Below are positions 4,973-17,357 of a stretch of 64,000 bases of DNA, in pieces. The position numbers were made by a program, and so were the translations under genes. The notes beneath the pieces are model-generated. The model was not told the origin of the DNA, did no database searches, and was given only the letters and a program-made list of their open reading frames with translations. Position 1 is the stretch's first letter, and every line of letters begins with the position of its first letter. This stretch comes from Hyphomicrobiales bacterium (GTDB lineage Bacteria; Pseudomonadota; Alphaproteobacteria; Rhizobiales; Aestuariivirgaceae), in NCBI GenBank assembly GCA_031431295.1, contig JANPDD010000153.1, positions 8,151 to 72,150 on the forward strand, in the 5' to 3' direction.

Positions 4973-6588
4973 GCCTCCACCATGCGCGGCGTCATTTCAA
5001 TGAGGGTGGGGCCATCGGCTTTCAATGCGGTGGCAATGGCCGTGGCCAACGCCTTCAGCGTCTCCGGCCTTTCGGAAGCGCAGCCATAGGCCCTGGCGAG
5101 TGCCTGGAAATCCGGATTGCGCAAGGTGACGGCATTGGGCTGGATGCCTTTCCTCACCATGTCGTCGCGGATCTCGCCCAGCGCGTCATTGTTCCAGAGC
5201 AGGATGATCAGGGGAATGCCCAGTTCCACGGCGGTGCCGATTTCGTTCAGGGTGAACTGGATGCCATAGTCGCCGATCAGTACGGCAACCGGGCATTTTT
5301 TCCCCACGCCGACCTTGGCGCCGATCCCGGCGGGAAGGGCAAATCCAAGTGTCGCAAAACCATTGGGATGATACCACTTGCCCGGAACGTCCATGGGAAA
5401 GTCTTCATTTGCGGCATAGGCAATCTGCGTCATGTCGGAGGCAATCACCGTCTCCCGGGGCAGGCCTTCCCGGATCACCTGCAGGACCTTGCGGAGTGCC
5501 ACCCGCAACGGGCCAAATGTTTCGCTGGCCCGCAGCCTCGCTGCCGTCTCAAGCCCCAGGTTTTTTGTGCTGGCGGAGTTGCGGATGCGTGCAGCCATGA
5601 ATGCGAGTGCGGCCCGGGAATCCGACAGGATCGGGAGGTAAGCCGCATGGGGCCGGACAAGGCTTCCCGGATCGAGGTCGATCCGGATGAGCTTGCCCTT
5701 GATGTCGATGAGGGTGGCATCAATGCGGTAACCGTCCCAGAAGTCTGTCTCGGAGAGTTCCGTCCCCACCGCAAGCACCACATCGCTCTGGGCAATCAGC
5801 TGTTTTGCGCCACTGCGCGACAGGTGGAAGCCCGCCGAAAGGGGATGCGACTCGGGAAAGACGCCTTTCCCCGCAACGGTGGTCATCACGGTTGCGCCAA
5901 TCCGCTCGGCAATGACCAGGGCCTCAGCACTTGCGCCCCTGGCACCGCCGCCCAGGATCATCAGGGGTTGGCGGGCCTCCTCCAACAAACGGGCAGCGCT
6001 TTCCAGGACGTCGTCGGCGCCGCGCGGTATTTTTGGCATCACCCGCGCCTGCCAGCCGGGGCCTGCGGGGGCACTCAGCAGATCGACGGGAATTTCGAGA
6101 TAGCAGGGCCGTGGCCGCGACGTTGCAAAGATGGAGAAGGCCTCGGCAATCGCATCCCTGATGTCTGCTGCTGTCAGGGCCTGGCGGGCAAAGCTCGTGA
6201 CGGCCTGGGCCACCGTCAACTGGCTGCGCATCTCATGCAGGCGGCCCCGGCCCTGGGCGCTGTCGCCGATGTCAAGGCAGGAGGAGACCACCAGCATCGG
6301 GCTTGAATCGGACCAGGCCTGGCCCATGGCTGTCAGAATGTTGGTGAGGCCGGGACCCGTGATCGTAAAGCACACACCGGGCCGGCCCGTGGCCCTGGCG
6401 TAACCATCGGCCATGAACCCTGCCCCCTGCTCGTGGCGGGTGAGGATGTGCCTGATCCCGGAGCGCGGCAGGGCGCGGTACATTTCAACATTGTGAACGC
6501 CCGGAATGCCAAAGATCGTGTCCACGCCATAGGCCTCCAGCAGGCCCACAAGCGCCTCGCCGGCGGAAAGTTCAGGTCTCTGGCTCAT
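4969..6588 (-). CDS. Thiamine-diphosphate-dependent enzyme (acetolactate synthase-like fold; candidate 2-ketoarginine/5-guanidino-2-oxopentanoate decarboxylase AruI-like)
   Basis: 539 aa. N-terminal TPP-pyrimidine domain (GVDTIFGIPGVHNVEMY, HEQGAGFMADGYARATGRPGV) and C-terminal TPP-binding GDYG...NN motif region. ATGA overlaps with both flanking genes. The specific substrate is inferred from neighbours only. Confidence 0.85.
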   Translation of the reverse strand: MSQRPELSAGEALVGLLEAYGVDTIFGIPGVHNVEMYRALPRSGIRHILTRHEQGAGFMADGYARATGRPGVCFTITGPGLTNILTAMGQAWSDSSPMLVVSSCLDIGDSAQGRGRLHEMRSQLTVAQAVTSFARQALTAADIRDAIAEAFSIFATSRPRPCYLEIPVDLLSAPAGPGWQARVMPKIPRGADDVLESAARLLEEARQPLMILGGGARGASAEALVIAERIGATVMTTVAGKGVFPESHPLSAGFHLSRSGAKQLIAQSDVVLAVGTELSETDFWDGYRIDATLIDIKGKLIRIDLDPGSLVRPHAAYLPILSDSRAALAFMAARIRNSASTKNLGLETAARLRASETFGPLRVALRKVLQVIREGLPRETVIASDMTQIAYAANEDFPMDVPGKWYHPNGFATLGFALPAGIGAKVGVGKKCPVAVLIGDYGIQFTLNEIGTAVELGIPLIILLWNNDALGEIRDDMVRKGIQPNAVTLRNPDFQALARAYGCASERPETLKALATAIATALKADGPTLIEMTPRMVEA

Positions 6589-7700
6589 TTGAAAATCCGT
6601 TCTGGTGAAATGTCGGAAAGCTTGAGGCCCCGCGCCACAACGCTGACAGGCAACGCTGTTTCGAGAATGAGCGAGGCCGCCGTTTCGGACAGCGCCGGGC
6701 TTGACTGGATGCCATAGCCGCCCTGGCCCGCGAGCCAGAAAAAACCATCCGCATACGGATCAAATCCGACGACTGGGTTGCCATCGGGGGCGAAGGTGCG
6801 AAGCCCGCCCCAGCGGTGGCCAAGCCTTGTCACGTCAAGCGACGTTGCCTCCTGCAGGCGGGCCACGCCTCTTGCGATCTCCATGTCATCGGCATAGGCG
6901 TCGTGGGGTTCAACCGGTGTGGCATCGGCGGGTGACACGATGAGCTTTCCGCTTTGCGGCTTGCAATACCAGGTTTCCGCCACGTCGAGGGCAAGTGGCC
7001 AGTCCTTGATGGTGTCGGCATTTTCAATCGGGACGGTGGCAACGGAGCGGCGCTTGGGCGTGAGGCCCATGGGCCGCACACCCCCGAGTTTAGCCACCAT
7101 GTCACTCCATGCGCCTGCGGCATTGACCACGACGGGGCTTGCGAAAATGCCGTGTTCGGTTGCCACCTGCCATTGGCCCTGACGAAACAGAAGCCCCTTG
7201 ACCTGGTGGGCGAGGCACAATTCCCCGCCACGCTCCTTGAACTGGCGCAGGTATCCGCGGTGGATGAGGTCAACCTCGAGGTCACCGGTGTTGGGGTCGA
7301 GAAACACCCGCTTGGCATAGTTGCCACGCAGGACCGGGAATATCTCCTGGGCGGCGCGCACCGAGATTTCGGCAAGGCCGCTCGACTTCTCGAGAAGGTC
7401 CGCTGCGTCCGGTTGCTGGTCTTCCGGCATCAGAAAAAGCGTGTCGCGGGGGGTGATCAGGGGTGCGGCGGCAAATCCCCGGGGCGGATCGCGGAAGAAA
7501 TTTTCGGACGCCCGGGTCAGGGCCAGCATGGGCGGGGGGCCGTAGTTGGGTGCGAACATGGCAACCGAGCGGCTGGTGGCATGATAGCCCGGGCGCTCTT
7601 CCATCTCGATGGCGACGACACGCCTGTGCGCCGCGAGGTGGGCCGCAACCGAGGCCCCCGCAATGCCCGCGCCGATCACGATGATGTCGAAAGATCTCAT
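6585..7700 (-). CDS. FAD-dependent amino-acid dehydrogenase/oxidase (DAO family; DauA D-arginine dehydrogenase-like)
   Basis: 371 aa. Rossmann motif IVIGAGIAGAS. DAO-family blocks PGYHATSRS, VNAAGAW, GVRPMGLTPKRRS, FFWLAGQGGYGIQSSP. Confidence 0.8.
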   Translation of the reverse strand: MRSFDIIVIGAGIAGASVAAHLAAHRRVVAIEMEERPGYHATSRSVAMFAPNYGPPPMLALTRASENFFRDPPRGFAAAPLITPRDTLFLMPEDQQPDAADLLEKSSGLAEISVRAAQEIFPVLRGNYAKRVFLDPNTGDLEVDLIHRGYLRQFKERGGELCLAHQVKGLLFRQGQWQVATEHGIFASPVVVNAAGAWSDMVAKLGGVRPMGLTPKRRSVATVPIENADTIKDWPLALDVAETWYCKPQSGKLIVSPADATPVEPHDAYADDMEIARGVARLQEATSLDVTRLGHRWGGLRTFAPDGNPVVGFDPYADGFFWLAGQGGYGIQSSPALSETAASLILETALPVSVVARGLKLSDISPERIFK

Positions 7701-15288: not shown

Positions 15289-15543
15289 TCAAGACTGCGA
15301 ATGCGGGGCGGGCGGCGAATTGGGCACGTGCAGGCTCTGGTTCATGTCACAGGGCTTGTTCAGCACCGTCCAACTGGAATTGTTCAGCACCATTTCACAG
15401 CGCGCCAGCGTTGGGCCATCGGCGGACGTGATGCAGGCGGTCTCGCCCTGCTTTGCTTCACCGCTGGCATAGAGGCATTTGCACGCCGCGTGTGCGGGTG
15501 CCGCAGCGGCACAAAGAGCAAGGGCAAGCAAAATCCTGTCCAT
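15289..15543 (-). CDS. Small secreted Cys-containing hypothetical protein
   Basis: 84 aa. Signal peptide MDRILLALALCAAAAPAHA followed by several Cys. Coding status inferred from the ORF and signal peptide only. Confidence 0.5.
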   Translation of the reverse strand: MDRILLALALCAAAAPAHAACKCLYASGEAKQGETACITSADGPTLARCEMVLNNSSWTVLNKPCDMNQSLHVPNSPPAPHSQS

Positions 15544-15808
15544 GGCGCCATGAGGCTCTTTCGCCGGGGCAAAGTCAAATCACATTAGGGGACTTGACCG
15601 GGTTCGTGGCCCAGCGAAGAAACCATTTGCATAGCCTTTGCCGTGCTTGGCGCCCTTCCCGGGGGTGCTCAGTCCGAAAATTCCAAGCGCTTCATTTGCT
15701 GAAAAATTCTCGGCATCACCCAGAAGCCATTTCCTCAGTTTTCTGATTAGCTTGGAGGAATTGACCTACTGGACCCTCCTTTGAGAAAGTGCCAGGTTGC
15801 TTTTCGCG

Positions 15809-16123
15809 ATGCAAGGTCCCAACACACTGATTTGCTATTGTTACCGCGATGCCGGGAATACAAAATTCTGGGGCGAGTTCGTTGTGTTAGGCCAAGTCAC
15901 GCGAAAGCAACTTGAGAAATTCTTGTTCGATGGTGAGTGGTTTGTTCCGGAACAGATTGGACTCAATCACTTGCTTAAGGAGCCGTGGTCGAAACTCGAC
16001 CATATATTGCACGAACTGCATGAATTTGAAGACACGGAAAGAACAGACCATTTTTGCGGTGCCGACGAATTGATTGAGAAATTTGAGTGTGCTCACACAA
16101 AGGGTTGGTTTGACGGGTACTAA
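15809..16123 (+). CDS. Small Cys/His-containing hypothetical protein, first gene of the islet operon
   Basis: Track ORF 15797-16123; the ATG at 15809 gives MQGPNTLICYCYRDAGNTKFWGEF... with CxC near the N-terminus and CGADELIEKFECAH near the C-terminus. The stop TAA overlaps the next ATG (TAATG). Confidence 0.6.
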   Translation: MQGPNTLICYCYRDAGNTKFWGEFVVLGQVTRKQLEKFLFDGEWFVPEQIGLNHLLKEPWSKLDHILHELHEFEDTERTDHFCGADELIEKFECAHTKGWFDGY

Positions 16124-16971
16124 TGACCATGGCGACACAGCGCGGCACCGACTGGAGCGTTGATGAGGTTGAGGTCTGCGTCGCAGCCTACTTCGATCAT
16201 TTGGCCTTGGAACTCACGGGGAACACATTCAACAAGGCACAGTTATATCGGGACTTATCCGAGCAGACGGGTAGAACTGCCAAATCTATTGAGTTCAAAT
16301 TTCAAAATATATCAGCAATCCTAAATGCCATAGGTCGCGAATGGATGACGGGCTTAGCTCCATTGGCAAATTACCAAGAACTTCTCGCACAGAAGGTTTC
16401 CCAGCACATCGTCAGAATTGATGATCTTCCACTGAATTCACTGGTCGACCTGCAAAACGAAACGTTAGGGTTGAGCGAATCCGCATCTTTCTATTTGGAG
16501 GCTCCGCCTGAGCTGCGCAGGTTGTCAGACGACCCTCCAGAATATATTGCGGCCCTCGCTCGCAAATTCGATCCAGTTGAACGGGACATCAAGAATCGGG
16601 CGCTTGGTGAAGCTGGGGAGCAGTTTATCTTCAACCACGAAAAGCGCTTCCTCTCACTTATTGGACGAAGAGACCTTGCTAATAACGTGAGGTGGACAGC
16701 AAGAGAAGAAGGCGATGGGGCAGGCTACGATGTGTTGAGCTTTACGGACCGGGGAGAGAAAAAATACATCGAAGTAAAGACGACAGTTGGAAGCGAGCGA
16801 ACGCCTTTCTTTGTTAGTCGCAATGAACACAGGTTTTGCAAACATAATTTAGAGCATTACAATCTCGTTCGAATCTTCAATTTTCGCAAAGGAATGAGGG
16901 GGTTTGAACTTCGTGGAGATATTGAGCAATATGTTCGACTGTCGACTGAGAGTTATCGCGCCGAGTTCTGA
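16123..16971 (+). CDS. DUF3883-like (restriction-endonuclease fold) domain protein with an N-terminal WS-DE helical domain
   Basis: 282 aa. C-terminal GEAGEQFIFNHEKRFL...GYDVLSF...KYIEVKTT...FFVSRNEHRF...YNLVRIFNF matches my recollection of DUF3883 and carries a D...ExK nuclease-type motif. The N-terminus DWSVDEVEVCVAAYF...RTAKSIEFKFQNISAIL resembles the leader domain of many HNH/restriction-like proteins. Confidence 0.65.
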   Translation: MTMATQRGTDWSVDEVEVCVAAYFDHLALELTGNTFNKAQLYRDLSEQTGRTAKSIEFKFQNISAILNAIGREWMTGLAPLANYQELLAQKVSQHIVRIDDLPLNSLVDLQNETLGLSESASFYLEAPPELRRLSDDPPEYIAALARKFDPVERDIKNRALGEAGEQFIFNHEKRFLSLIGRRDLANNVRWTAREEGDGAGYDVLSFTDRGEKKYIEVKTTVGSERTPFFVSRNEHRFCKHNLEHYNLVRIFNFRKGMRGFELRGDIEQYVRLSTESYRAEF

Positions 16972-16979
16972 ATGTTGGG

Positions 16980-17189
16980 TCATCCGCTTTCAACCCACAG
17001 CACATTCATCCCATCCGTATCTACCGCCACCACTCCAATATTCCGGTCCTCGGCTTTCGCTGCACAGGCGCTTTGATAGGTCGGCGCGAGAATGTTCTCG
17101 GCACTCTGGGCGACAAATCTTTCATATGCATGAGACCCCTTCGGCGGGAGCACGAGCATAAAAATTAGAAATGTGAGCATCCCGCACAT
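16980..17189 (-). CDS. Small hypothetical protein with N-terminal hydrophobic helix
   Basis: 69 aa, MCGMLTFLIFMLVLPP... Convergent with the DUF3883 gene. Preceded on the minus strand by TTGACT-17nt-TATATG and the palindrome atcctacaataggat (17192-17206). Confidence 0.4.
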   Translation of the reverse strand: MCGMLTFLIFMLVLPPKGSHAYERFVAQSAENILAPTYQSACAAKAEDRNIGVVAVDTDGMNVLWVESG

Positions 17190-17306
17190 ATATCCTACAA
17201 TAGGATAAAAGTCAAGAAGAATCTCGACCCTTGTGCCGTGTCTGCAAAAGGCCTATGGGAGGCCCACGAATTCACTCACATAGCCACGCAAGTGGAACAT
17301 GAGGGT

Positions 17307-17333
17307 GGGTCCCGAAAGGGACCCGCTTTTTTT
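17307..17333 (+). terminator. Strong intrinsic terminator 24 nt upstream of rimP
   Basis: gggtccc-gaaa-gggaccc followed by gcttttttt. No annotated plus-strand gene ends here. Confidence 0.8.
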
Positions 17334-17357
17334 ATTGCCTGAAGCAGACCTGACAGA

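Follow-up and report, generated by a model that had tools for sequence, protein, structure and literature searches.

Previous studies placed DUF3883 in the PD-(D/E)xK superfamily (Steczkiewicz et al. 2012, PMC3424549) and showed that catalysis by YenY4I, an active modification-dependent enzyme, resides in this domain (PMC6765204); YenY4I and McaZI are both DUF3883-type modification-dependent restriction enzymes (Lutz et al. 2019, PMC6765204). PD-T4-1 was found to be anti-phage by experiment (Vassallo et al. 2022, PMC9519451) and has been classed as a nuclease-NTPase (bioRxiv 10.1101/2025.07.10.664194), and group 6 of the HNH_2 nucleases includes AlwI, BbrI, and HphI (PMC5714182). PDC-S36 is among the 145 candidates obtained by 'guilt by embedding' in BREX, DISARM, and type I restriction-modification (RM) loci (bioRxiv 10.1101/2024.01.29.577857). 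A PDC-S36 gene, directly preceded by a gene for a protein of 104 amino acids (aa), is possessed by an uncultured Hyphomicrobiales bacterium of freshwater sediment or groundwater, within a stretch of 64,000 nucleotides (nt) of contig JANPDD010000153.1 (positions 8,151 to 72,150; hereafter the window). The two genes occupy a low-GC islet, which we read, on balance and with reserve, as a horizontally circulating two-gene restriction-type cassette with an accessory subunit.

The islet (15600..17190, about 1.6 kb, without strand assignment) has a GC content of 0.488, compared with 0.595 for the whole window. GC drops to 0.45-0.52 over approximately 15600-17200, while both flanks lie at 0.59-0.64; similarity to the closest relative, locus L017, starts at about 15660, and the islet-specific part extends to about 17190. 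An earlier note on this DNA had described such a low-GC stretch between a NUDIX gene and rimP, and it is indeed present, as are all other sequence features that the note had listed (open reading frames (ORFs), motifs, flanks, and palindrome).

The PDC-S36 gene and its small partner

The PDC-S36 nuclease gene (16123..16971, plus strand) encodes 282 aa and is recognized by its full-length PADLOC match, its AlphaFold2 (AF2) model, and its ratio of nonsynonymous to synonymous substitutions (dN/dS). Residues 7-282 of the protein match positions 3-279/280 of PADLOC model PDLC05008 PDC-S36 (E 2.8e-95, 317 bits); it is already catalogued and is therefore a known kind of candidate. Its C-terminal part carries a NOV_C / DUF3883 PD-(D/E)xK domain (Pfam PF13020, residues 166-256, 16618..16890, plus strand; E 1e-18, 67.6 bits with a cut-off of 22.1), so that the DUF3883 of the earlier note, now named NOV_C in Pfam, was correctly recognized. 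The translation contains the segments GYDVLSF, KYIEVKTT, SRNEHRF, and YNLVRIFNF. The D...ExK arrangement proposed for this region is borne out by an alignment of 36 homologues (42-84% identity), in which the predicted catalytic triad of D203, E217, and K219 (codons 16729-16731, 16771-16773, and 16777-16779, plus strand) is invariant; N234, E235, and R250 are likewise invariant. The AF2 model has a mean predicted local distance difference test score (pLDDT) of 90.7 and shows C-terminal strands at residues 204-207, 213-220, 246-252, and 259-264 with a helix at 233-241. It is the motif and the Pfam match, rather than the structure search, that support the predicted PD-(D/E)xK membership; sequence profiles found no relative of solved structure.

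The N-terminal helical domain (approximately residues 8-100, 16144..16422, plus strand; W11...E15...GRT...S55-I-E-F-K59-F-Q-N62) was delimited by hhalign and AF2 and consists of helices 13-31, 38-49, 53-69, and 86-100 at pLDDT 94-97. The N-terminal 109 residues belong to no Pfam family, and no modified-base reader (PUA, SRA, EVE, DUF3427, or SBD) was matched there by Pfam. This domain had been likened to the leader domain of HNH and restriction-like proteins, and comparison with the N-domain of HNH_2 nucleases agrees with that view (hhalign probability 92%, E 6.7e-7, 50 columns). Because a profile-profile comparison alone detected the link, whereas a plain hidden Markov model of the PDC-S36 N-domain missed the HNH_2 N-domains, the homology is taken as moderate evidence. 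The HNH_2 proteins concerned are matched from end to end by the PADLOC models 'HNH / Type II restriction enzyme', and the shared N-domain is presumably a DNA-recognition module.

The small partner gene (15809..16123, plus strand) encodes 104 aa from its ATG, and its translation starts with MQGPNTLICYCYRDAGNTKF. Its stop codon and the start codon of the nuclease gene share one base (TAATG, 16121-16125), and a consensus scan found no sigma-70 promoter 5' of it. A word-indexed search found three relatives of the small protein, while an exhaustive profile search retrieved 1,279 cluster representatives at E<=1e-3, including 169 at E<=1e-10, which define a family of approximately 100-aa domains. The family motifs are Y-x-Y-R-D-x-x-N-x-K, F-x-P, G, D-D-H, and W; Y12, K19, and D64 are invariant, Y10, R13, D14, N17, G28, F45, P47, G51, H65, and W100 are more than 90% conserved, and the polar residue set spans Alphaproteobacteria to gut phages. 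One member (L106, 5684-5998), which adjoins an intact PDC-S36 gene, has DDR instead of DDH, so that not all members depend strictly on H65. Neither the 104-aa protein (searched in Pfam, NCBIfam, and PADLOC) nor 94 family members (Pfam, PHROGs, PADLOC, and NCBIfam) gave any match, and the family, together with its habitual pairing with HNH_2 and NOV_C nucleases, appears new to the libraries and papers searched. The structure model of the small protein, built from four sequences, is predicted to be beta-rich at a pLDDT of 72. Fusion partners of the domain are varied; most are acidic segments without annotation, and no known domain recurs among them.

Several ideas about the small protein were abandoned. 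The CxC...Cx10CxH metal site suggested in the earlier note does not hold, because its cysteines and the CxH are replaced even in close homologues, among which none of its Cys/His residues is conserved. Comparison of the small protein with PUA-like readers, of which it might have been a detached form, gave an hhalign probability of 0.3%, and comparison with the N- or C-domain of PDC-S36 gave less than 1%.

In comparison with L017, dN/dS is 0.08 for the small gene and 0.10 for the nuclease gene; these low values and the many homologues indicate that both are more than chance ORFs. The corresponding dS values are 0.83 (small gene), 1.31 (nuclease gene), and, for comparison, 0.99 (rimP), and the islet seems to be old at the rimP site, with a vertically inherited look.

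Linkage of the two genes and their wider distribution

All three homologues of the small protein from the word-indexed search are encoded directly upstream of a PDC-S36 gene, and their contexts are unrelated: one is the same rimP site in a related metagenome-assembled genome; another lies beside a helix-turn-helix (HTH)-methylase fragment and near EcoRI-methylase, GmrSD/HNH, and BrnA genes; the third is located among metabolic genes. Starting from the nuclease, 5 of 12 full-length PDC-S36 loci in species-dereplicated genomes have an adjacent small gene (three upstream on the same strand, two convergent), and four further look-ups added one pair (L106); in this unbiased sample, about 6 of 16 PDC-S36 genes have the partner and about 10 of 16 lack it. 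Scans of metagenomes and viral contigs that started from the small family revealed five more pairs, including one divergent and one with the small gene downstream, giving a total of 15 adjacent pairs in four arrangements (10 upstream same-strand, three convergent, one divergent, and one downstream). In five pairs the two genes overlap by one base or are separated by 2-3 bases, and an EcoRII-C gene follows the module in two contexts. Functional coupling is argued from the survival of adjacency through rearrangement. The co-occurrence put forward in the earlier note thus stands in so far as the small gene adjoins PDC-S36 in all 15 pairs, but it is one-sided, considering that only about 6 of 16 nucleases are paired. 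That note had also been unable to place the pairing among named systems; the nuclease can now be placed as PADLOC PDC-S36, while its pairing with the small gene is indeed uncatalogued.

Two Hoeflea loci, L004 and L005, share the same insertion site, but only L005 has the small gene; in L004, homology to L005 resumes exactly past the stop codon of the small gene. PDC-S36 is intact in both (dN/dS 0.038), and its integrity in L004 without the small gene rules out an obligate antitoxin; the small gene is an accessory. In a further locus (L008, 990-1839), a frameshift or an assembly error has broken the PDC-S36 homologue into overlapping ORFs of 123 and 177 aa, while the upstream small gene and a downstream EcoRII-C-like gene are intact.

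The module has a GC content of 43-51% in hosts of 54-67%, which is consistent with horizontal circulation as judged from composition. The horizontal acquisition proposed earlier is supported, as the base composition of the module is foreign to each of the hosts examined and its genomic contexts are unrelated.

Relatives of PDC-S36 were also found on 1,191 plasmid records, all without the small gene. On the Escherichia coli plasmid pEc55_1 (L101, NZ_CP059131.1), a 378-aa PDC-S36 (5710-6846, WP_000080860.1, PADLOC E 6e-107) without the small partner lies between IS26 copies, beside aac(6')-Ib-cr/blaOXA-1/catB3 and tet(A), and identical or near-identical genes occur on conjugative plasmids of Escherichia, Klebsiella, Salmonella, Acinetobacter, and Pseudomonas. 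The N-terminal extension of this protein (about 97 aa, 5710-6000) has no Pfam family; it weakly matches the head domain of the Type IV enzyme ScoMcrA (PDB 5zmm, E 0.068, 84 residues), with which it shares DSKAIAGVA and SGG motifs. The possibility (Rosetta-stone) that these 97 aa of the enterobacterial PDC-S36 represent the small domain in fused form was rejected, as no similarity was found. In two distantly related genomes, a solitary PDC-S36 gene (L107, 6001-9593; L108, 6001-10123; 54% and 42% identity to the window protein) is located immediately upstream of uvrB, which may represent a recurrent insertion site or a functional association. Among 59 viral or proviral contigs of IMG/VR (L171-L229), PDC-S36 starts approximately 15 nt from the contig or provirus boundary in about 25 and is thus the terminal gene there; it is either cargo at the prophage end or part of a host flank that the boundary caller took in.

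PDC-S36 is the neighbour of the small gene in 4 of 80 metagenome loci of the small family. According to Pfam, the 128 unique immediate neighbours at these 80 loci include HNH_2 (20), C5 DNA methylase (four), NOV_C (three), SLFN/DUF2075 helicase (three), EcoRII-C (two), PLD (two), Mrr_cat (one), and YhcG (one), and McrB-like and NERD-UvrD proteins also occur. HNH_2 is the commonest neighbour, being present in about 24 of the 80 loci by profile search; approximately 13 of the HNH_2 neighbours have the shared N-domain and approximately seven have a PUA-like N-terminus. In an Erythrobacter plasmid, the small gene follows a cytosine methyltransferase gene. Four metagenome loci (L081, L089, L093, and L095) encode polypeptides of 667-719 aa in which a C5 cytosine methyltransferase, the shared N-domain, and HNH_2 are combined; a small-family gene comes directly after the fusion, and at three of these loci the next gene is EcoRII-C. 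This unusual methylase-nuclease fusion sits within an EcoRII-like RM locus, and its HNH part, instead of restricting DNA, might act like Vsr as a repair nickase.

In 62 viral contigs, the small domain is almost never beside a nuclease or methylase and often lies within proteins of 180-315 aa, so that phage copies are either solo or fused. The Brevundimonas phage vB_BpoS-Papperlapapp (L103, 3935-4471) and four sister jumbo phages (approximately 350 kb) carry the domain in a 178-aa hypothetical protein, surrounded by runs of hypothetical genes. In human-gut contigs from Firmicutes elements (L061-L065, L071, and L056), the small gene is followed by a DUF4314 gene and a gene for a highly acidic protein, or is fused with DUF4314; ParA-type genes occur close by in related loci, and the arrangement looks like conjugative-element or phage cargo. 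A quick neighbour-joining tree, calculated without bootstraps, separated nuclease-linked members from mobile-element members. The PDC-S36-linked members fall in at least three clades of that tree, and this placement suggests partner swapping between nucleases with a common N-domain.

Proposed mechanism and rival explanations

In the mechanism that we propose, PDC-S36 would be a stand-alone DNA endonuclease, in which a three- or four-helix N-domain for DNA recognition is joined by a linker to the NOV_C PD-(D/E)xK domain. The small gene would be translationally coupled to PDC-S36 through the TAATG overlap, and its product would be a ligand- or nucleic-acid-feature-binding subunit deciding when, or on what DNA, the nuclease cuts. 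Solo or fused copies in phages and mobile elements could plausibly interfere with such nucleases. The analysis establishes which genes these are, their domain composition, the conserved catalytic triad, the linkage of the genes, that the partner is dispensable, and the foreign base composition, while DNA cleavage, the defence role, the physical contact of the two proteins, and the direction of regulation are what we infer here. We consider it likely that the pair is a restriction or defence-type nuclease module, and fairly likely that the small protein is functionally coupled to the nuclease. A tentative proposal is that the small protein binds a ligand or DNA feature and thereby acts as sensor or gate; this role is favoured over that of a simple inhibitor or antitoxin because the polar residues are constant across partner nucleases and phage copies. 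A broader idea, that the YxYRD-NxK / DDH domain is a widespread gate of HNH_2 and PD-(D/E)xK nucleases, captured by phages and conjugative elements as a counter-defence decoy or inhibitor, is doubtful at present.

Several observations weigh against these proposals. The top Foldseek matches of the nuclease model were all PD-(D/E)xK proteins (PDB structures of SPARDA DREN, Cas4 SSO0001, Hjc, HinP1I, AvaII, and MGME1), but the best E-value was 0.25 and non-significant; it is the Pfam profile that bears out the fold suggested in the earlier note. For the small protein, a fold search against PDB and BFVD gave nothing significant, and the family profile matched no PDB sequence. The source paper presents its 145 families as defence candidates only (bioRxiv 10.1101/2024.01.29.577857), the name PDC-S36 occurs in no searchable paper, and the surroundings in the window are housekeeping genes rather than a defence island. 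The small gene is missing beside approximately 60% of PDC-S36 genes, the copies on the 1,191 plasmid records among them, so that the nuclease works, or at least persists, alone. The sensor reading is weakened by the PUA-HNH partners of the small family, which have a reader domain of their own.

The same distribution bears on the possibility of a toxin-antitoxin (TA) or abortive-infection pair, in which a toxic PDC-S36 would be held by a small antitoxin that is released or degraded on infection. A small upstream gene that overlaps by one base is what a classic type II TA module looks like, no close homologue of the small protein was seen without PDC-S36, and phage-borne homologues could serve as anti-toxins. 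Even so, we regard such a pair as unlikely, since strong purifying selection keeps PDC-S36 intact in the Hoeflea pair even where the small gene is missing, the partner is absent from 10 of the 16 unbiased genes and from the plasmid records, and convergent and divergent arrangements break operon coupling; moreover, the small protein has no DNA-binding antitoxin domain, and polar residues that are invariant across different partner nucleases are unusual for antitoxins. Those residues (Y, R, D, N, K, D, and H, from Alphaproteobacteria to gut phages) look catalytic, which would suit a small protein that modifies DNA or nucleotides, or reverses a modification, thereby shielding self DNA in a non-canonical RM system, with phage copies shielding phage DNA. 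The family also recurs beside C5 methyltransferases, EcoRII-C, and modification-dependent PUA-HNH nucleases, and its solo phage and plasmid copies resemble orphan methyltransferases. However, approximately 100 aa is very small for such an activity, there is no likeness to any known enzyme fold or family, one member has DDR for DDH, and a nuclease that persists without the small protein would be intolerable in classical RM logic, which makes an enzyme of this kind quite unlikely.

Alternatively, the two genes could be independent neighbours, the small gene being a mobile-element or anti-defence gene that lands in the variable spots where restriction genes accumulate. This would account for the lack of a nuclease neighbour at approximately 50 of the 80 metagenome and 60 of the 62 viral loci and for the cataloguing of PDC-S36 as a single-gene candidate, but not for adjacency kept through four arrangements and many hosts, for the one-base overlaps or 2-3-base gaps in five pairs, for HNH_2 at 20 of 128 neighbours, which is far above any plausible background, or for tree clades that correlate with partner type; independence is accordingly very unlikely. 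The poorest prospect is that PDC-S36 is a selfish free-standing homing-type endonuclease between conserved genes and not a defence gene, which strikes us as highly improbable. Its architecture of a DNA-binding domain plus a nuclease fits, as do the integrase-free mini-islets of 1-1.7 kb between housekeeping genes (NUDIX-rimP, tRNA-gyrB in L002, and uvrB in L107 and L108). Yet the rimP-site islet looks vertical (dS 0.8-1.3 compared with 1.0 for rimP) and is under strong purifying selection, no empty site or homing junction was seen, the plasmid PDC-S36 rides inside IS26 structures, and PADLOC drew the family from genes lying inside BREX, DISARM, or type I RM loci.

PDC-S36 is widespread: more than 1,000 resistance plasmids of enterobacteria carry it, as do prophages and many genomes from the environment, and its catalogue entry would become a system if defence by the nuclease were shown. 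It would be valuable to know that a subset of PDC-S36 has a dedicated accessory subunit common to HNH restriction enzymes. The small family might explain how single-polypeptide restriction nucleases avoid self-damage or choose their targets, and its phage-borne copies might constitute a new anti-restriction family. If the broader idea is true, the YxYRD-NxK / DDH domain would be a shared host-virus part of restriction biology that databases do not recognize.

Islet borders and comparison with known systems

To the left of the islet lie a NUDIX ORF (Pfam E 2.4e-9) and an 84-aa ORF on the minus strand (15289-15543), the latter located between the NUDIX gene and the islet. The 84-aa ORF encodes a signal peptide and several cysteines, has a host-like GC content and no Pfam match, and is unaligned in L017. 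To the right are rimP-nusA-ylxR-infB (RimP_N E 3.3e-21). No mobility gene or integrase was found among the window ORFs within the islet, and a search for direct and inverted repeats at its borders and for tRNA genes gave nothing convincing. No empty-site or strain variant was recovered from the source metagenomes, whose contigs are fragmentary and gave no joint spanning the islet, and no RNA runs exist for them.

A 69-aa ORF (16980..17189, minus strand) had been described in the earlier note as a membrane-protein gene converging on the operon. It is present as an ORF; however, its segment shares only 33% identity with L017, which has a partial deletion here, it is bypassed altogether in a related strain from the source metagenome (joint 16967->17191), and no homologue was found in any locus. 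It was therefore judged not to be a gene. The palindrome ATCCTAcaaTAGGAT (17193-17207), which had been assigned to the promoter of this ORF, belongs instead to a conserved non-coding block upstream of rimP (17190..17335, plus strand), which was delimited by comparison with L017 and by a terminator. The arms of the palindrome (ATCCTAnnnTAGGAT) are identical in L017 and its loop is different, and the surrounding 17190-17215 is 88% conserved; a 67-nt stretch (17269-17335) is 95.5% identical to L017, above the level of the flanking genes. A strong intrinsic terminator with a 13-bp stem (17301-17330), followed by a T-run, lies 26 nt before the rimP start codon. The block is single-copy, and Rfam gave only a sub-threshold L20-leader match, reflecting the terminator. 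This block could be the terminator of the islet operon, or a leader, attenuator, or small RNA of the rimP region.

Among described enzymes, YenY4I and McaZI share with PDC-S36 the DUF3883/NOV_C catalytic family and the stand-alone nuclease character, and some have DUF2075/Schlafen NTPase neighbours, as the small family has. They differ in their N-terminal PUA and/or DUF3427 readers, in place of which PDC-S36 has the unannotated helical N-domain. As to Type IV restriction enzymes, PDC-S36 has no recognized reader domain, and no methyltransferase was found among the window ORFs of 13-20 kb, while some relatives lie near C5 methyltransferases. The HNH_2 proteins (PF13391, COG3440; approximately 250 aa, some fused to C5 methyltransferases) have the N-domain W...E...GRT..S/A-V..K..N-F in common with PDC-S36, whereas their catalytic domain is a His-Me finger and not PD-(D/E)xK. 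PD-T4-1 has a related nuclease domain, as its PADLOC models match residues 155-242 (E 2.5e-14), but the match is confined to approximately 90 residues (profile 244-332 of 383), and PDC-S36 has no NTPase and a different N-terminus.

The operon layout, with a small upstream gene overlapping the nuclease gene, resembles C-protein/restriction operons and type II TA modules. Unlike these, the small protein has no HTH and is predicted to be beta-rich, the gene order is variable, and the nuclease also occurs without the small gene; as for type II TA in particular, L004 keeps PDC-S36 without it and the plasmid copies are solitary. The closest described system is PDC-S36 itself (PADLOC; Payne et al., bioRxiv 10.1101/2024.01.29.577857), to which the window protein matches over its whole length, as do its relatives and the plasmid copies. 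PADLOC defines PDC-S36 as single-gene and has no model for the small gene, whereas here and in approximately 40% of close alphaproteobacterial relatives the nuclease is paired with it. Overall, the locus adds a two-gene form to a candidate system that was already known, and the small-protein family is the new part.

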